64,000 bases of DNA from a virus. Positions 691-42,689 of this stretch are shown here, one piece after another. The notes beneath the pieces were generated by a model. The model was not told where the DNA came from, searched no databases, and saw only the letters and a program-made list of their open reading frames with translations. Positions within the stretch are counted from its first letter, which is position 1. Every line of letters begins with the position of its first letter. The position numbers and the translations under genes were made by a program. Location of the stretch: IMG/VR virus record IMGVR_UViG_3300009529_000001, positions 45,579 to 109,578 of that record; one strand, written 5' to 3'.

Positions 691-1006
691 AACAAAGACA
701 AGATTAATTAATACTCTTGGAAGAGTTTATTACGCTTTTTATTTGAAAGGTGGTAGAAAAAATCCTAAAAGAAAAGATATAGAAGAAAATATATATAAAA
801 CAAAATATCCTGATTCTTTGAAATCATATCAAAAACTTTTTTCTCGATTATTTATACATATTAATGAAAAATTGACACAAAAATCTTATAAGAAAATAAT
901 AAAAATATTAAAAGAAGAAGATAAATTAACCGAGAAAAAAAGGCGCGGTTATATTAAGTGCTGGCGTTTAATGGAGAAATATTATGGAGGTTATTCAAGC
1001 GAATAG
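683..1006 (+). CDS. hypothetical basic protein
   Basis: ORF overlaps both neighbours in operon fashion. Confidence 0.55.
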   Translation: MFKTKTRLINTLGRVYYAFYLKGGRKNPKRKDIEENIYKTKYPDSLKSYQKLFSRLFIHINEKLTQKSYKKIIKILKEEDKLTEKKRRGYIKCWRLMEKYYGGYSSE

Positions 1007-3269
1007 TATTAATGATGGATTAGCAAAAGTTCTTGAAGGTATAGTAGGTAGAGGGAATAAAGTTGATATAAAAGGTAAAGAAACTCTAGAACTTCATCCT
1101 TGTTTAATAGAATTTGATAAACCTCTTAAACGTACATTGCTTTATCCAGGAAGGGGTAATAATCCTTTCGCTAGTCTTGCTGAAACTTTATGGATTTTAG
1201 CAGGACGAAATGACGTTGATTGGCTAAAATTCTTTTTGCCAAGAGCGCCTGATTGGAGCGATGATGGTGAAGTTTGGAGAGCAGGTTATGGACCTCGATT
1301 GAGGCAATGGAAAGCAGAGGGTGAATGTTCTAGTGAATGGACGTTCATTGATCAAATTAAATATGTCTACGATACACTTAAAAATGATCTAATGAGCAGA
1401 CAAGCAATAATATCTTTATGGGATCCTGGTGAAGAATGTACTGTGGGAAAAACATTAGATTGTCCTTGTTCCAATTGGCTACATTTTATGGTAAGGAGAA
1501 AATATAGGCCAGAATTAGCAGATATAAAAGACAAACCTGAAACTTGGACTTTCCATCTAGATTGTGAATTTGTGATCAGATCAAATGATGCAATTTGGGG
1601 ATTCTGTCTTTCCGGTGCTACTAAAATAAAATTATTGGATGGAACTGTTAAACCTATAAAAGATCTTGTTGATAAACAGTTTTGGGTTTATTCAAAAAAT
1701 AATGATAAAGAAATAGTACCCGGAAAAGTTATAAAATGTAAAAAAACAGGAAAGAAAAAAATATTAAAAATAACTTTTAGTGATGGAAGCTTCGTAAGAT
1801 GTTCTAAAAACCATAAGTTTTTATTAAGAGATTGGAAATATAGAAAAGCAAAAAATCTAAAAGTAGGTGATTCAATTGATAGTGTATATTTTAGATTGAA
1901 TAAAAAAGGTTATGAACAATATAACAACGGTGATGGCTGGTTTAATACGCATATAATGGCAAATATTCTGTCGGAAAAGGGAGAATTAGATAGTAATAAT
2001 AATTTTCATATAACTCACCATAAAGATTTTGTTAAACGAAATAATAATCCTGAAAATCTTTTATGGCTGGGGAATTATGATCATCATAGTTTTCATGCTG
2101 AATTATTGCGTAAAATGTGGCGGGATCCTAAATATAGAAAATCAAGAAAGAAAGTTATAAAAAAACTTTTAGCTTTTAATAGAAAACAATGGAAAAATCC
2201 TGAATATAGAAGAGAAAGACGTAAAATCTTAAGTGAAAGAATGATCCAATGGTGGGAAGAAGAAAGATTTGATACTGAATTACATAAAGAAGCTGCTAAA
2301 AATAATTTAATCAATTACAATAAATCTTTTAAAGGGCGTAATAAATCTAGAGAGATTGGACAAACATTTGGAACAGATAATTTTAAGAAATATCACAAAA
2401 CGGGCGGACATTTAAAAACTTTAGCAAAAATTCATAGAGAAAAATTAAACAATACTCCAAAAATTAAATTTAAACGCACTAGAACTAGAATCCTTAATGT
2501 TTTTAATGAATTGAAAAAAAGATTCTTAGAATTTAATGAAGAAAATTATTTTAATTATAAACCAATGGGTAATCCTGGATGGAAAAAAGTTTTTGAATAT
2601 TTTAAAGATTTGGATGAAATAAATGAATGCTTAGAAAATTATAATCACATAGTTACTTCTATAAAATCTGACGGTTATGAAGATACTTATGATTTGGAAG
2701 TAGAAGATTATCACAATTTTGTATTGGAAAATGGTGTTATCGTTCACAATTCTAATATTAATTTTTATGAATGGAGTGTATTACAAGAAATATTAGCAAG
2801 TGTATTAGGTATAGAAATTGGGACATTTTATTATTATGTATCAAGTATACATGTTTACAAACATCATTGGAAACGTGTTAAAAAATTATTGGAAAATAAA
2901 GAAAAATTTGTAGACAATCTTCCTGAATTTAGATTTTGTAGAGGGCAAATTAATCTTGATAAATATTTGGAAGACTGTGAAATGTTATGTAAATATGTAG
3001 AAGAAATAATAATAAATGATAAGAAAAAACTTAAATATTTTATACCTTTTCATGGGGAGAGAGGATCTACTTTAAACGATATTGCTTGTTTATTGTCAGT
3101 TTTTGTAAAAATGAAACAAAACGATAATGCTTGGAGAAAAACTTTGCATTGTATTCCATTTTCTGATTTAAAAGTATCTTGTTATTACTATGCAATGAAA
3201 AATATTTTTAAATACAAAGATTATACAATTCAAGAAGCAATAGAAAAGGTGCAAAAAAATGAGTATTAA
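984..3269 (+). CDS. thymidylate synthase-family enzyme, probably dUMP hydroxymethylase-like, interrupted by an intein
   Basis: NPFASLAETLWIL, YGPRLR, SRQAIISLWDP, catalytic PC (DCPCSN). RSNDAIWGF|SNINFYEWSVLQE is rejoined after intein removal; SIHVY follows. Confidence 0.85.
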   Translation: MEVIQANSINDGLAKVLEGIVGRGNKVDIKGKETLELHPCLIEFDKPLKRTLLYPGRGNNPFASLAETLWILAGRNDVDWLKFFLPRAPDWSDDGEVWRAGYGPRLRQWKAEGECSSEWTFIDQIKYVYDTLKNDLMSRQAIISLWDPGEECTVGKTLDCPCSNWLHFMVRRKYRPELADIKDKPETWTFHLDCEFVIRSNDAIWGFCLSGATKIKLLDGTVKPIKDLVDKQFWVYSKNNDKEIVPGKVIKCKKTGKKKILKITFSDGSFVRCSKNHKFLLRDWKYRKAKNLKVGDSIDSVYFRLNKKGYEQYNNGDGWFNTHIMANILSEKGELDSNNNFHITHHKDFVKRNNNPENLLWLGNYDHHSFHAELLRKMWRDPKYRKSRKKVIKKLLAFNRKQWKNPEYRRERRKILSERMIQWWEEERFDTELHKEAAKNNLINYNKSFKGRNKSREIGQTFGTDNFKKYHKTGGHLKTLAKIHREKLNNTPKIKFKRTRTRILNVFNELKKRFLEFNEENYFNYKPMGNPGWKKVFEYFKDLDEINECLENYNHIVTSIKSDGYEDTYDLEVEDYHNFVLENGVIVHNSNINFYEWSVLQEILASVLGIEIGTFYYYVSSIHVYKHHWKRVKKLLENKEKFVDNLPEFRFCRGQINLDKYLEDCEMLCKYVEEIIINDKKKLKYFIPFHGERGSTLNDIACLLSVFVKMKQNDNAWRKTLHCIPFSDLKVSCYYYAMKNIFKYKDYTIQEAIEKVQKNEY
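1605..2750 (+). mobile_element. intein (382 aa) with HNH-type endonuclease domain
   Basis: N-terminal CLSGATKIKL, block B CSKNHKF, C-terminal TYDLEVEDYHNF...VIVHN followed by Ser +1. Internal HHKDFVKRNNNPENL..H HNH motif. Confidence 0.9.
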
Positions 3270-8108: not shown

Positions 8109-8116
8109 GCAAAACT

Positions 8117-8173
8117 GGAACGTTGTAGTGCCCATAGGACGATCAGAAATAAGTAAGGTATACCAAGGGTAGG
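8117..8173 (+). promoter_or_regulatory. copy 1 of dispersed intergenic element GGAWCGYT-N12-RGACGWTY-N12-14-GGTA-N6-8-GTAKG
   Basis: Aligns with 19306-19362 (+) and 31556-31612 (-). Confidence 0.55.
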
Positions 8174-8188
8174 GGGTTAAAATGGCCT

Positions 8189-9032: not shown

Positions 9033-9466
9033 AAAAAGAAAAAAAGTCTGGTAAAAAGAAGAAACGTGTTAATTTTCCTTGGTTGAAAAAAAAACAAACG
9101 AAAACTTTGAAGTATTTCCTTGCTTATTATCTTGACAAAATAGGTTTTGCTAAGGTCATAAGAGGAAAACTAAGTTTCGGAAGTTATGTGCAAAAAAAAG
9201 TTATTCCTGTTGTGCGTCGAAAATTTCCTTCAGCTTACAGGATTGTCAAGAAACATTATAAGGAACATGGAAGGAAATTGAGTCGGAAGGAATTTAATAA
9301 CTTGATTTTCCTTAGAATCTCTGCTATGTTTAAGTATCGGAAGGGAGATAAAAAAATCGAGAAAACTTCCGAACATCCTTTGAAATCTAAGAAAAAAAAT
9401 ATGAAGTGTTCTGGACTTGCCAAGTTATTAATAGAAATGGATAAAACTTATGAAGAAGTTAAGTAA
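9029..9466 (+). CDS. hypothetical basic protein
   Basis: RBS GAGGAG; operon-coupled. Confidence 0.55.
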   Translation: MKKEKKSGKKKKRVNFPWLKKKQTKTLKYFLAYYLDKIGFAKVIRGKLSFGSYVQKKVIPVVRRKFPSAYRIVKKHYKEHGRKLSRKEFNNLIFLRISAMFKYRKGDKKIEKTSEHPLKSKKKNMKCSGLAKLLIEMDKTYEEVK

Positions 9467-21606: not shown

Positions 21607-21939
21607 ATGGACGTTGACGATCTGACTATCAGAGAAGTGAAGCGGCTGCAAGCAATGTTCGGGGCTGGTGAGCCGGGAATCCCAATCGTTGACGTGGGGC
21701 GGAAGGTTTTTATCCGCACGGTTACGCACCACTACACCGGGCGGGTGACCGCGTGCAATCCCGCGTGGCTTGAACTGGAAGAAGCCGCGTGGATCGCTTA
21801 CGACGGACGATTTCACGAATGTCTGGCGAACGGTACGCCGGATGAGGTTGAGCCATTCGTGGATTGGGTCCGCATTCCTGTCGGCTCGATCATCGACCTG
21901 ACTCCCTGGAACCATGATCTGCCGCAAAAGGTGAAATAA
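21607..21939 (+). CDS. small beta-barrel (Sm/LSm-like) protein, GC-rich gene
   Basis: VGRKVFIRTVTHHYTGRV...LELEEAAWI; RBS GGAGG. Fold is inferred. Confidence 0.6.
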   Translation: MDVDDLTIREVKRLQAMFGAGEPGIPIVDVGRKVFIRTVTHHYTGRVTACNPAWLELEEAAWIAYDGRFHECLANGTPDEVEPFVDWVRIPVGSIIDLTPWNHDLPQKVK

Positions 21940-21940
21940 T

Positions 21941-22180
21941 ATGAATCAAGCTCTATTAAGAACAAGTTTTGATTGGTCAAGGTCATGGTCAAGGTCATGG
22001 TCAAGGTCAAGGTCAAGGTCATGGTCATGGTCATGGTCAAGGTCAAGGTCAGGGTCATGGTCAGGGTCAAGGTCAGGGTCATGGTCAGGGTCAAGGTCAG
22101 GGTCAAGGTCAGGGTCAAGGTCAAGGTCAGGGTCAAGGTCAGGGTCAGGGTCAAGGTCAGGGTCAAGGTCAAAGGAATAA
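21941..22180 (+). CDS. Ser/Arg/Trp/Gly dipeptide-repeat protein
   Basis: ATG directly after the upstream stop, stop just before the next start; encoded by the GGTCAN array. Confidence 0.55.
   Translation: MNQALLRTSFDWSRSWSRSWSRSRSRSWSWSWSRSRSGSWSGSRSGSWSGSRSGSRSGSRSRSGSRSGSGSRSGSRSKE
21975..22172 (+). repeat. tandem hexamer repeat (GGTCA[A/T/G]) x33
   Basis: Read directly; only the 6th base varies. Confidence 0.95.
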
Positions 22181-28579: not shown

Positions 28580-28610
28580 AACGGGCGCCTACGGGCGCCC
28601 GTTTTTTTTT
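28580..28610 (+). terminator. strong intrinsic terminator
   Basis: AACGGGCGCC-TACG-GGCGCCCGTT followed by a T-tract (UNCG loop). Confidence 0.9.
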
Positions 28611-30137: not shown

Positions 30138-30653
30138 CTATTCAGTGTAAACATAAGGATCTTTGGTCATCTCATACAAAGTATTTTCTATATTATACTT
30201 TTGTTCTTGAAGAGCTAATAGTTCTCTTTCTGTAAGACTTTTATTACTTGACTTTTCTTCGACAGGAAGTTCTAATAATTTTTCGATTTGTTTCAATCTA
30301 TAATGTAGTCTATCAAATTCTTGAGTTTTTTCATGGAGTTTTTTAGCATGTTCTTCTTTGGGAAGATATTTATAGACTCTTTTGAATTTTTGTACACCAT
30401 TTAGTTCTCCCAATGATACACAATATTCTTCAGGATCTAATTCAAAAACGGCTTGTGGAATATTTACATCAGTTGCTATTGTAGATTTAACTGTAAACAT
30501 ATCAGGATCCCGTAAAGGTATAGCAACATGGACATTTGGTGAATCAAACAATGGTTTATCGACACATAAACCTAGTATAACTTTTCTAATATCTATGGAC
30601 ATAAGTTTTTCCCAAAAATATTTTCCCATTGTCTGTTCTACCATTGACTTCAC
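30138..30653 (-). CDS. hypothetical protein
   Basis: Operon ORF; start uncertain. Confidence 0.55.
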   Translation of the reverse strand: MKSMVEQTMGKYFWEKLMSIDIRKVILGLCVDKPLFDSPNVHVAIPLRDPDMFTVKSTIATDVNIPQAVFELDPEEYCVSLGELNGVQKFKRVYKYLPKEEHAKKLHEKTQEFDRLHYRLKQIEKLLELPVEEKSSNKSLTERELLALQEQKYNIENTLYEMTKDPYVYTE

Positions 30654-30680
30654 AAATTTTGATAGCCATCTTCCCCTCCG

Positions 30681-31193
30681 CTATTTCCAATGAACAAGCC
30701 TAGTATCCAGCCACGCTATTATTTCTTCCCTCGGAACTTTTGATCCGATTGGATATCTCTCTTGCGCCTCGTCGAGCAGGCGAGTAAAAACGTCTCGCTT
30801 TAGGTGTTTGTTCTCGGCCTCAAGCCCAGAAACTACTATCCTGACGGCATCCAGCGGCATTCCGTATTCCTCGGGAAGTGCGGGACATTTCTCCCGGAGG
30901 TACTTTTCGATAGCTTTGTTTGAATCTACGGCCACGCTCTGCCACGCCTCAAGCTCGGCGATGCGCAGGCTCCGCTCAAAGGCTGACGTGTCGGCCTCGG
31001 TAAGCCGACTGCGCTCGGCGCGGATAAGCTCGACGACAGCCTCGACCGCACCCTGTCCCGGTTCGCCATCGTCATCCCACTGACGCCAGAATTCCCTCGC
31101 CCTCTCTTCCGCGTCGTCAGCTTGTTTCCTATGTGCAGGACATGTACGAGCGTCGCCAGTGCAATTTGGATCTTTTCTTGCTGGATCAATCAT
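30681..31193 (-). CDS. hypothetical protein with GC-rich core
   Basis: ATGA overlap with upstream gene; composition shift at ~30760-31130. Confidence 0.55.
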   Translation of the reverse strand: MIDPARKDPNCTGDARTCPAHRKQADDAEERAREFWRQWDDDGEPGQGAVEAVVELIRAERSRLTEADTSAFERSLRIAELEAWQSVAVDSNKAIEKYLREKCPALPEEYGMPLDAVRIVVSGLEAENKHLKRDVFTRLLDEAQERYPIGSKVPREEIIAWLDTRLVHWK

Positions 31194-31375
31194 GGCCTTA
31201 ATTCCTTAGGAAGAGGACCGATATAACCTTTTGTAAAGATCCATTTTGTGGACCATTCTTCACCATCTTCACTAGATTCCACAATAACAATACGATTGAG
31301 TTTTCGCATTTTTTCCGAAAACTTTTTAATATCTTCAGGAAGCGGATATTCAGGTGGAAGATTTAGATACTCCAT
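31190..31375 (-). CDS. hypothetical protein
   Basis: RBS AAGGAG. Confidence 0.55.
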   Translation of the reverse strand: MEYLNLPPEYPLPEDIKKFSEKMRKLNRIVIVESSEDGEEWSTKWIFTKGYIGPLPKELRP

Positions 31376-31399
31376 TGTATATCTCCTTAAAGAATAAAT

Positions 31400-31543
31400 G
31401 CCCTGATGGTCACGTTACATTTTAAAGATGCTCAGGGCCGGACACCCCTGGAGACAATGTGCATCCATTTGCGCCCACTTCTTTCTGTCATCTGGATGCA
31501 AACGCACGTGACCTCCACGCCAATGGCGAAAATGACAGAAAAT
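31400..31543 (-). ncRNA. candidate structured RNA with two pseudoknots
   Basis: Four perfect 7-10 bp complementary pairs in an interleaved arrangement within a GC-richer intergenic region. Confidence 0.5.
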
Positions 31544-31555
31544 ACGTTATAGCTA

Positions 31556-31612
31556 CCATACTTACCCCTACCTCACTTGTTTTTGATCGTCCTCTGTCTA
31601 TCTGAGCGATCC
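31556..31612 (-). promoter_or_regulatory. copy 3 of dispersed intergenic element
   Basis: Minus strand GGATCGCT-N12-GGACGATCAAAAACAAGTGAGGTA..GTATGG, closely matching 8117-8173. Confidence 0.55.
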
Positions 31613-31692
31613 ATTTTTAAGCCCTTACTGTTACTATAGTTAATATAACATCCATGGGTTCAAATAGCAAATCCTATTAAAAATTAATTGAT

Positions 31693-32136
31693 TTATCTAT
31701 TTTGCAATTCTTTTCTTACTTGCATAAGAATTTTGCCTAGTTTATTTTTTCCTACCCATTTACCATCAGCTCTACATTTTCCCCAATATTCATCACCCCA
31801 ACGATTTCCTTCAATAAGTTTTGCATTTCCAGTATCAATGAGTTTTTTAGCTAAATCGGAATTTTGGAAAAACTTTGCTTTAACTGTTTTATACATGATT
31901 TTATCTTTAACATCATCCCAATCTTTGCGTAATTTAAGTTTTTTTCCTAAACGTTTTGCTTGGATAAAATTTTCACACTTACGAATTTCTTTACGAAGTT
32001 TTTTCTTTTTAGTTTTATGAGCTTGATAGTAATGTTCAACAGAACGCCATTTTTTTTCAGCAATTATAAATGACGCCATATAAAAATTACTAAGGAATCC
32101 ATAACCTCTTCTAAAAGAAAAAATCTTTTTAGCCAT
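31693..32136 (-). CDS. NADAR/YbiA family hydrolase
   Basis: FLSNFY, SVEHYYQAHK, KFFQN, LIEGNRWGDEYWG, GKNKLGKILMQVR. Confidence 0.9.
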   Translation of the reverse strand: MAKKIFSFRRGYGFLSNFYMASFIIAEKKWRSVEHYYQAHKTKKKKLRKEIRKCENFIQAKRLGKKLKLRKDWDDVKDKIMYKTVKAKFFQNSDLAKKLIDTGNAKLIEGNRWGDEYWGKCRADGKWVGKNKLGKILMQVRKELQNR

Positions 32137-32344
32137 TAGATATTACCTTTTCTATAATTTCTGTAGAAGTATCATTCTCCCAATGGAGAATCAATAAATT
32201 ATCTATTTTCTTTTTAGGATTTTTTAATCTAATAGCATTTTTGAAAATTTTATCAATTATCAAAATATCGCCAGAATGAGCAAAATCTCCTATTCTGTAT
32301 TTTGCTTTGACTCTATCACCAACTTTTATATTAATAGATTTCAT
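32129..32344 (-). CDS. hypothetical SH3-like protein
   Basis: IKVGDRV; coupled. Confidence 0.5.
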   Translation of the reverse strand: MKSINIKVGDRVKAKYRIGDFAHSGDILIIDKIFKNAIRLKNPKKKIDNLLILHWENDTSTEIIEKVISNG

Positions 32345-32526
32345 TTGAGTATTTCTAATGCAATTTGTTCGATAAGATCTTCGTTTGAAATTTTGCCGAA
32401 TTTTTCGAGATCAAGAACAATACGTTTAGGATGCATACCTATGACAAAACGTTGTGCGTGAAGTTCTTCGCTCCATGAAATATTGTGTTTTTCACAATAT
32501 TTTTTGATTATTGTAGGATTAGCCAT
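32341..32526 (-). CDS. hypothetical protein
   Basis: RBS AGGAGG; promoter-like TTTACT-17-TATTAT upstream. Confidence 0.55.
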   Translation of the reverse strand: MANPTIIKKYCEKHNISWSEELHAQRFVIGMHPKRIVLDLEKFGKISNEDLIEQIALEILK

Positions 32527-32616
32527 GTTTTCCTCCTATGTTTGTTGTACTTATAATACCATTAAAAAGCCATCAAGTAAAGGGTAAAGGATATTCCTTT
32601 TGCGTTATTCAGAATT

Positions 32617-41384: not shown

Positions 41385-42689
41385 ATGATTAGATGTGATT
41401 ACCCTAATTGTGGATGTAAAAAAACTACTACTTTCAAATGGATTTCTCATGTTTTAAAAACAATTTATTTTGAAGTTCCTAAAGTAGCATCTACAAGTAT
41501 ACGAAAAGGATGTTTCGGTATTGATGTAAATGATCTAAAGAAAAATAATCCTTATGATTTTGAAGTATTTCGAGATTCCAATCTTGAAAAATATTCTGAT
41601 TATTTTAAATTTACAATTGTCCGAAATCCTTGGGACAGAATCGTATCTATTTGGAAAATGTATACAACACAGTCTTCTCGCAAAAAACAAATAAAAAAAT
41701 TATTCAAAATAGAAGATCCTGCTAATCTTTCTTTCCTAGAATTTATTGAAAAAATGACAGAAAAGAGGAATCACCATTGGGAACAACAAATTGAATTTTT
41801 GCCTAATTTAAATGAATTAGATTACATAGGAAGATTTGAAAATCTTAGGGAAGCTTGGCATTTTATTTCTTATAAATTAGGAATAAATACAAAATTACAG
41901 AAATTAAATGTCACAGATCATTACCATTATCATTATAGTGAATATTATGACAGAATAACAAAAGGAATTGTAGAGAAAGAATATGCGAAAGATTTTAAAA
42001 TACTTAAATTCAAATTTGAAGTGCTTTCTTACTGTGATAATTTTTCTAAAGAAAAATCTAATATTGCAGGATTAAAATATATTCCGACTCAGGAACCATA
42101 TAGAAGTAATGGTTGTCAAATGATGAATATTCCTTCTTGGTTAGTAAGAAGAAAGGAAATGAGAAAAGATAGTTTTTCTGTAAGGAATAGAAAAATTTTA
42201 TTTAAACGTATTACTCCTGAAATGAAATGTATCTTAGAAATTGGCGTCAATAGATATGCAGAAAAATCTTCTACAAGTATTGTTTTTAAAGGTAAATCTG
42301 ACGATTGTGTTTACTTAGGAATTGATTTAATGGATAAATCTTATTTGGATAATCCTGAAAAGAATATATATACAATGAAATGCAATTCAAATTTAAAACA
42401 AAAGGTTATAGATAAATTAAATAGTTTAGGACAAGAACAGATAAATCTTCTTATTATTGATGGGGATCATTCAATCAATGGCGTTATAGGTGATTGGGGA
42501 TTTACTAAATGGCTTGCTGAAGATGGGATTGTATTTTTACATGATACAAATGCACATACTGGTCCTATGCTTGTTTATGACGCTATAGATGAAACTATGT
42601 ACAAAAAGAAGAAACGTTGTACTGGAAGAAATGAAGATGGCAGTTTTAAAGATTGGGGAATTGGTGTTTGTAGGAAGATTAAAGAATAG
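41385..42689 (+). CDS. sulfotransferase (family 2) fused to a methyltransferase (Methyltransf_24-like)
   Basis: PKVASTS, VRNPWDRIVS, IGRFENL; then LEIGV, IIDGDHS, FLHDT. Confidence 0.8.
   Translation: MIRCDYPNCGCKKTTTFKWISHVLKTIYFEVPKVASTSIRKGCFGIDVNDLKKNNPYDFEVFRDSNLEKYSDYFKFTIVRNPWDRIVSIWKMYTTQSSRKKQIKKLFKIEDPANLSFLEFIEKMTEKRNHHWEQQIEFLPNLNELDYIGRFENLREAWHFISYKLGINTKLQKLNVTDHYHYHYSEYYDRITKGIVEKEYAKDFKILKFKFEVLSYCDNFSKEKSNIAGLKYIPTQEPYRSNGCQMMNIPSWLVRRKEMRKDSFSVRNRKILFKRITPEMKCILEIGVNRYAEKSSTSIVFKGKSDDCVYLGIDLMDKSYLDNPEKNIYTMKCNSNLKQKVIDKLNSLGQEQINLLIIDGDHSINGVIGDWGFTKWLAEDGIVFLHDTNAHTGPMLVYDAIDETMYKKKKRCTGRNEDGSFKDWGIGVCRKIKE

Follow-up and report, generated by a model that had tools for sequence, protein, structure and literature searches.

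Structured leaders in phages and bacteria

In the gene 32 operator of phages T4 and RB69, the AU-rich, unstructured region to which ribosomes bind comes after a pseudoknot (PMC535899, PMC3014915). In T4 this pseudoknot spans about 28 nt, and the more than 40 nt that come after it carry several UUAAA/UAAA repeats and include the ribosome-binding site (RBS) (PMC535899). The ilvB-II motif was first a structured-RNA candidate and was later shown to act through an upstream ORF (uORF) (PMC10272879). Where might further structured RNAs be sought? They are known to be enriched in intergenic regions that are long and GC-rich (PMC6429828, PMC8723152).

How does the present locus, an intergenic gap in a phage genome, compare with these systems? 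The reading preferred here, held tentatively and with less than even confidence, is that it encodes a cis-acting, structured 5' leader on an mRNA that is read from the minus strand and covers a block of orphan genes. Like the gene 32 operator, it would be a phage leader that places a structure able to form a pseudoknot ahead of an AU-rich spacer, AUUUAUUCUUUAAGGAG, which carries the Shine-Dalgarno (SD) sequence and includes one UUUAA. It is unlike that operator in its size, its four long helices being spread over about 145 nt, and in a spacer of 12 nt to the SD that holds only the single UUUAA; the locus shows no compact pseudoknot with more than 40 nt of unstructured UUAAA/UAAA RNA behind it. 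Moreover, gene 32 encodes its own single-strand-binding repressor, whereas the first gene here encodes a 61-amino-acid (aa) orphan without any match.

The locus also shares a feature with attenuators of the trp, ilv, and erm types, namely, a short ORF with its own SD inside a leader of mutually exclusive pairings. This ORF, of 23 codons, overlaps the alternative helices: it runs through A, a small hairpin, B, and C and reaches its UGA stop inside A' (helix names as in Table 1, a prime marking the 3' arm). Unlike those attenuators, it has no regulatory codon run and no canonical terminator, and the SD of the following gene lies outside the perfect helices; regulatory codons or a stalling motif, in combination with a canonical terminator or an SD in a switching helix, were not found at the locus. 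Like GC-IGR/DIMPL candidates, which come from AT-rich genomes, the gap is an intergenic outlier in both length and GC content (PMC6429828, PMC8632094, PMC8723152). Accepted GC-IGR candidates, however, need covariation among homologues, and this gap has no homologue.

Genomic setting

The virus record is 109,578 bp long and has direct terminal repeats; its bases 45579-109578 make up the window, by which is meant the whole 64,000-nt stretch analysed. The phage genome, at 33% GC, carries genes for a large terminase, portal, head, primase, helicase, ribonucleotide reductase, and thymidylate synthase, and no GenBank phage has a large terminase more than 26% identical to its own. The sole public run with the sequence is a subsurface-metagenome DNA run, possibly its source. 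No variants were seen in the contigs of that one run, and no RNA run was found among the public sequencing runs containing the sequence.

The gap and its neighbors are listed in Table 1. Beyond the 170-aa gene come genes for 171, 138, and 72 aa and then a UDG-like 155-aa gene, all on the minus strand, and the minus-strand sense that the sequence-only reading had assigned to the RNA agrees with these flanks. The gap is among the longest intergenic regions of the genome and has 40.7% GC, compared with an intergenic mean of 33% (standard deviation, 6.4). Its structured core, at 50% GC, falls within the top 2.2% of genome windows, while the adjoining 5' part (147 nt) is AT-richer (34% GC). The neighboring 170-aa gene is GC-rich as well (55-60%), so high GC at the gap could simply mark foreign DNA and need not mean structure. 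What about transcription? The promoter candidate upstream predicts a start near 31635 and a leader of about 260 nt, evidence that is weak because such sites are no commoner in the region than in shuffles. Overall, a long and GC-rich gap, minus-strand flanks, a promoter-like site upstream, and an SD after helix D argue for a leader; the shuffle-level promoter match and the GC-rich 170-aa neighbor argue against one.

Table 1. Features of the intergenic gap and its surroundings, in window coordinates
Feature	Position	Strand	Details
Intergenic gap	31376-31692		317 nt, inside minus-strand gene block
NADAR-domain gene	31693-32136	-	Upstream of gap; Pfam E 4.7e-32
61-aa orphan gene	31190-31375	-	Downstream of gap; start codon 31375-73
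170-aa orphan gene	30681-31193	-	Overlaps 61-aa gene by ATGA
Sigma-70-like promoter candidate	31642-31670	-	TTGCTA, 17 nt, TATATT; TG before -10; 9/12 match
Shared element, ~50 nt	31569-31618	-	Counterpart 8113-8160 (+); core AGGACGATCAAAAACAAGTGAGGTA at 31593-31569
Candidate uORF, 23 codons	31488-31559	-	MVAITYFLSFSPLAWRSRAFASR; GAGGT/GGGG precedes ATG
Helix A, 5' arm	31532-31541	-	UUUCUGUCAU; 10 bp with 31482-91
Small hairpin CGCC-AUU-GGCG	31518-31528	-	Within loop of helix A
Helix B, 5' arm	31506-31513	-	GGUCACGU; in internal loop of domain A; 8 bp
Helix C, 5' arm	31493-31500	-	UGCAUCCA; 1 nt upstream of A'; 8 bp
Helix A, 3' arm	31482-31491	-	AUGACAGAAA; pair probability 0.70-0.97
Hairpin E	31440-31476	-	13 bp including three G-U; alone -16.4 kcal/mol, z -2.4
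Helix C, 3' arm	31460-31467	-	UGGAUGCA; can pair within hairpin E instead
Hairpin D, GCCCUGA/UCAGGGC	31400-31438	-	Arms 31400-06 and 31432-38; 7 bp, 25-nt loop, then AUUUAUUCUUU; alone z -2.3
Helix B, 3' arm	31408-31415	-	ACGUGACC; in 25-nt loop of hairpin D
SD AAGGAG and start codon of 61-aa gene	31373-31388	-	SD 31388-83, ATG 31375-73

Inverted repeats and pairings

The sequence-only reading had reported four inverted repeats, and a repeat search and a separate scan both recover them: four perfect repeats (7, 8, 8, and 10 nt) within about 145 nt of the gap, at the positions in Table 1. The small hairpin that it had noted (CGCC-AAT-GGCG in the DNA) is present too. Read 5' to 3' on the minus strand, the order is A, small hairpin, B, C, A', C', D, B', D'. 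Also borne out is the claim that a G-U extension favors the minus strand, since G-U pairs extend helix A on that strand only. To give the specifics, helix A gains U31542-G31481 outward and U31531-G31492 and U31530-A31493 inward; the inward G-U and A-U pairs lengthen the minus-strand stem to 12 bp, and the outward G-U adds one more. Hairpin E, absent from that first list, emerged from the minimum-energy fold and is specific to the minus strand because of its three G-U pairs.

Helices B, C, and D, in contrast to A and E, are exact Watson-Crick blocks without G-U pairs, bordered by mismatches on both sides. Could the cluster act as DNA? Blocks of this kind are equally compatible with a DNA-level origin, which counts against a leader. 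The element would then consist of hairpins or cruciforms, or of protein sites, for example, a replication or recombination site beside the AT-rich half of the gap. Such an element fits with three helices out of four being exact blocks bounded by mismatches, as it does with the folding of the single-stranded DNA (z of -2.1 and -1.5 on the minus and plus strands with DNA parameters) and the AT-richer 147 nt alongside. The arms, however, are spaced 25-90 bp apart around four different centers, a layout that resembles neither operators nor a single cruciform; iterons and direct repeats of other kinds are absent; and the locus lies away from the divergent switch and GC-skew minimum near 32300-32600. 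A DNA-level role is rated as highly improbable.

Chance level and folding statistics

Is the repeat cluster more than a coincidence? The null model consisted of 40,000 dinucleotide shuffles of the 150 nt at the locus, in which repeats of at least 7 nt were counted. At least four perfect repeats occurred in 79 of the 40,000 shuffles, and a summed repeat length of at least 33 was reached in 9/40,000. When all 150-nt windows of the genome are ranked by a composition-corrected Poisson p, the locus (p of 7e-4) comes out as about the 8th or 9th most repeat-rich distinct locus. The counts at higher-ranked loci are inflated by reused arms, direct repeats, or A/T runs, and among the top-ranked windows this cluster is the only one with eight independent, non-low-complexity arms. 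Four independent perfect repeats that are rare in shuffles, forming the cleanest such cluster in the genome, argue for the leader reading.

Chance is a serious rival all the same, if on the whole a rather unlikely one. It would make the repeats a nonfunctional coincidence thrown up by a 64-kb scan, perhaps aided by foreign, GC-richer DNA. Reading 64 kb amounts to looking at some 430-1000 windows, which makes the family-wise chance about 0.1-0.2 (about 0.01-0.02 when limited to intergenic DNA), and 0.43% of the genome's windows reach the same composition-corrected p, versus 0.1% expected. The family-wise 0.1-0.2 and the 0.43% favor coincidence, as does the lack of conservation in any collection searched. 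Weighing against it are (i) a local probability of 2e-4 to 2e-3, (ii) the eight high-complexity arms, unlike those of other top loci, and (iii) the position of the cluster, which falls in a long, GC-rich intergenic gap immediately 5' of an RBS. Corrected for the 64-kb scan, the cluster is of borderline significance, a point against the leader reading. It is probably non-random, though the statistics alone are insufficient.

Folding energies bear on both readings. Nested folding is weakly better than in shuffles and does not separate the strands: z was -1.2 (minus) and -2.0 (plus) for 185 nt and -1.9 (minus) and -1.8 (plus) for 148 nt. The minimum free energy (MFE) structure has an ensemble frequency of 0.0005-0.003, and a two-layer fold aimed at pseudoknots showed no energy gain over shuffles. 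Weak, strand-symmetric z values, including those obtained with DNA parameters, count against the leader, together with the low frequency of the MFE structure, and they favor chance, together with the two-layer result and the ordinary accessibility of the start region described below. On the other side, hairpins A, E, and D each beat shuffles when folded alone (z of -2.3 to -2.4), and this, with G-U pairs in A and E on the minus strand only, argues for the leader.

Double pseudoknot or alternative folds

On the minus strand, 31545-31398 folds at minimum energy into three hairpins: A with a branched interior, E, and D. The four repeat helices, in turn, form two nested sets, {A,D} and {B,C}, that cross one another. 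Can they all form at once? Judging from their layout, all four are sterically able to coexist. A and C together have the geometry of an H-type pseudoknot, with loops of 31, 1, and 14 nt as read from the sequence, and B-B' would be a loop-loop (pseudoknot) contact between the interior loop of A and the 25-nt loop of D. B' has a pair probability of 0.00-0.22 in nested folding, a procedure by which pseudoknots cannot be modelled.

The sequence-only reading had combined the helices into a double pseudoknot. Its pairings hold, and their simultaneous formation is rivalled by near-isoenergetic alternative folds: enforcing {A,D} gives -56.0 kcal/mol and enforcing {B,C} gives -55.8, with the MFE at -58.1. 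Since the two nested sets have like energies, a description as alternative folds is at least as good as one as a double pseudoknot. Furthermore, C-C' and hairpin E are mutually exclusive, and an extended helix B (13/17 pairs) competes with hairpin D, so that a rigid double pseudoknot fits no better than a bistable leader. For a functional double-pseudoknot RNA as such, the present evidence speaks neither for nor against.

A related proposal is that the four helices form together as a double pseudoknot in a stand-alone RNA of a new class, be it a riboswitch aptamer, a self-cleaving ribozyme, or a trans-acting small RNA. It draws on the same pairings, on the compatibility of the A/C H-type pseudoknot with a B-B' contact to D, and on the GC-rich core. 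If the helices co-form, two interlaced pseudoknots in about 150 nt would recall the double-pseudoknot ribozymes (HDV-like, twister, and the glmS core). In HDV the helix order is 1,2,3,3',1',4,4',2'. The locus differs from these ribozymes in that order, in its much longer helices, in matching no covariance model, and in having no identifiable catalytic core; neither the helix order nor the core nucleotides of HDV-like, twister, or hammerhead ribozymes were found in it. A hammerhead reading of a plus-strand CUGAUGG was considered and rejected, there being no stem and GAAA in hammerhead register. Nor does the single sequence define a conserved core or hint at a ligand or cleavage site, and no Rfam family, including HDV-like, twister, hammerhead, and glmS, matches at E<=10. 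A conserved, covarying aptamer, the mark of a riboswitch, was likewise not found, as no homologue turned up in the phage, viral, metagenome, and genome collections. Ribozyme and riboswitch roles are without specific support. A stand-alone RNA of this kind is judged improbable, and very improbable in its narrower form, in which a self-contained four-helix double pseudoknot of an undescribed class (a ligand or factor switch or a ribozyme), known from a single genome, would control the orphan gene block of a subsurface phage that is deeply divergent.

The ribosome-binding site of the 61-aa gene and a possible switch

As the sequence-only reading had placed it, the structure sits just upstream of the RBS of the 61-aa gene, with the SD beginning 12 nt after helix D and lying outside all perfect helices. 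What, then, could connect the two? The segment CAUUGUCUCC (31459-31450), inside hairpin E, is complementary to GGAG (31386-83) and ACAAUG (31378-73), and longer folds use the pairing of CAUUGUCUCC with the SD core and start codon. The GGAG core is mostly paired in the ensemble, with an unpaired probability of 0.01-0.21. The paired state of this core, the near-isoenergetic {A,D} and {B,C} sets, and the H-type geometry of A and C argue for a regulatory leader. Unusual sequestration of the SD was rejected, however, as the 61-aa gene ranks an ordinary 46th among 149 genes in the predicted accessibility of its start region; the sequestration step therefore lacks statistical support, which counts against the leader.

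From the pairings, position, and G-U pairs observed, we infer transcription, folding in vivo, and a regulatory effect, which would work as follows. A leader of about 260 nt would serve the 61-, 170-, 171-, 138-, and 72-aa genes and the UDG-like 155-aa gene. On the minus strand it would fold into successive hairpins A (31542-31481), E (31476-31440), and D (31438-31400), with B-B' bridging A's interior and D's large loop and C-C' forming an H-type pseudoknot with A at the expense of E. In the ON state, hairpin E would occupy CAUUGUCUCC and leave the RBS of the 61-aa gene free. In the OFF state, C-C' formed with A would break E, and CAUUGUCUCC could then pair with GGAG...ACAAUG and block the RBS. 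The balance might be set by ribosomes on the 23-codon ORF, which would cover C and A', or by a bound factor.

Should the candidate prove real, it would add a new structured leader RNA, from a phage lineage without cultured relatives, in which a single switch combines a uORF, an H-type pseudoknot, and a loop-loop contact. Elements of this type show how phages time early-gene expression. At present the candidate is known from one sequence and is of practical use chiefly as a well-defined target for probing, or for reexamination with related genomes.

Could the locus control transcription rather than translation? Hairpin D is followed by a U-rich run, but it is no canonical terminator, given its 25-nt loop and the fact that a terminator scan did not call it. 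As a riboswitch expression platform, then, the locus has an anti-SD segment, while D with its U-rich run is not a canonical terminator and start-region accessibility is ordinary. A strong, canonical intrinsic terminator does occur at 28580-28607 (AACGGGCGCC, a 4-nt loop, GGCGCCCGTT, and a T run; 10-bp stem). It follows a GC-rich 150-aa gene and serves as the reference for this phage's terminators.

The 23-codon ORF and the shared element

Upstream of the structure lies an element of about 50 nt that is shared with 8113-8160 and is probably what the sequence-only reading had called a conserved element. Its 25-nt core recurs with 22/25 identities at 8136-8160 (plus), after the primase gene, so that a repeated element does exist nearby; the core alone has a BLAST E of 0.45. 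The genome holds exactly two copies, in inverted orientation and 23.4 kb apart. Both are intergenic, in the sense of the downstream ORF, and behind each come GGTAGGGG and the ATG that opens a small ORF. After the second copy, the ORF has 51 aa, or is a 39-aa transmembrane-like frame, at 8182/8189. The shared element could be a common 5' UTR or operator, or it could mark segment ends. A sigma-54 reading, tried by eye, was dropped, since the spacing is wrong and the second copy has no -12 element.

In the gap, the small ORF after the element is the 23-codon ORF. Might its peptide (31559-31488) be the main product of the transcript, with E and D as a 3' UTR and leaky terminator? The long-range pairings would then control translation of the peptide or stability of the mRNA, as in the mRNAs of small toxic or membrane peptides. 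GAGGT/GGGG 5-10 nt before the ATG is in keeping with a small-protein gene, and so are the U-rich run after hairpin D and the same ~50-nt element ahead of the small ORF at 8182/8189, one frame of which is transmembrane-like. Set against this, 23 codons arise easily by chance in sequence of 50% GC, and the 25-nt loop of D fails the terminator scan, unlike the 4-nt loop at 28580-28607. The peptide is partly hydrophobic, with a run of about 14 residues that is interrupted by Ser and Pro and is too short for a membrane helix, and it has no homologue. No antisense promoter of note was found either: as regards a type I toxin-antitoxin arrangement, the locus offers that partly hydrophobic peptide and, as the only plus-strand promoter-like site, a weak 9/12 match. 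A small-peptide gene of this kind is considered improbable. For the preferred leader reading, translation of this ORF matters as a possible input to the switch, and MVAITYFLSFSPLAWRSRAFASR holds no regulatory codon run.

Searches for relatives

The sequence-only reading did not recognize an RNA family, and a covariance-model search of Rfam 15 (4227 models) found no match in 31370-31700 even at E<=10; nothing overlapped the region in 30500-32500, and no gathering-level match occurred across the whole window. A search for homologues that might show covariation found none in phage, viral, metagenome, and genome collections. At the DNA level, blastn of the region against GenBank phages gave no homologue, and DNA patterns for the core and the 25-nt element were absent from viral, metagenome, and genome contigs. 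Protein-guided searches for the locus in viral contigs, using the 170-aa, 61-aa, and portal proteins, came back empty. Neither the DNA nor the orphan genes beside it had a homologue in these collections, which leaves no alignment in which covariation could be sought; the lack of a homologue, of covariation, and of an Rfam match argues against the leader.

Do the neighboring proteins have relatives? Among 5.8 billion clusters the 61-aa and 170-aa proteins matched only themselves, with no full-length relative. The 61-aa product had no match in Pfam, PHROG, or the protein atlas, and a plus-strand 48-aa ORF had none and is not even a called protein. The NADAR relatives (L002-L011), 36-45% identical, have no neighboring genes in common with the locus and no intergenic similarity. 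Exhaustive phmmer with the 170-aa protein found 65 proteins, sharing only two sub-domains with it. These proteins differ greatly in length, and none has a Pfam or PHROG name. The 170-aa orphan (30681-31193, minus) is itself a mosaic in composition, the GC content being 60% in the 5' half and 47% at the 3' end. The two sub-domains are a strongly conserved one of about 45 aa (W..VA.ESN.AIDAYLRE..P.LPEHYGMPVDGVR) and a C-terminal module.

Other observations in the window

A 14-nt sequence, AAAATGACAGAAAA, at 41751-41764 (plus) is identical to 31529-31542 and lies inside a 434-aa gene (41385-42689), with a BLAST E of 0.11. A minus-strand leader RNA would complement the mRNA of that gene over these 14 nt; the identity is probably due to chance. 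Another repeat-rich spot, at 9198-9314, contains AATTTCCTTC/GAAGGAAATT (10 nt) and several overlapping, GGAA-rich inverted repeats. At 21983-22037, TCATGGT occurs five times in 55 nt as a direct-repeat array with spacings of 6-24 nt, and a single ACCATGA is found at 21911. Finally, a 761-aa ORF at 984-3269 (plus) matches thymidylate synthase at both ends and an HNH endonuclease at residues 337-386, an arrangement that suggests an intein or an in-frame, intron-type insertion.
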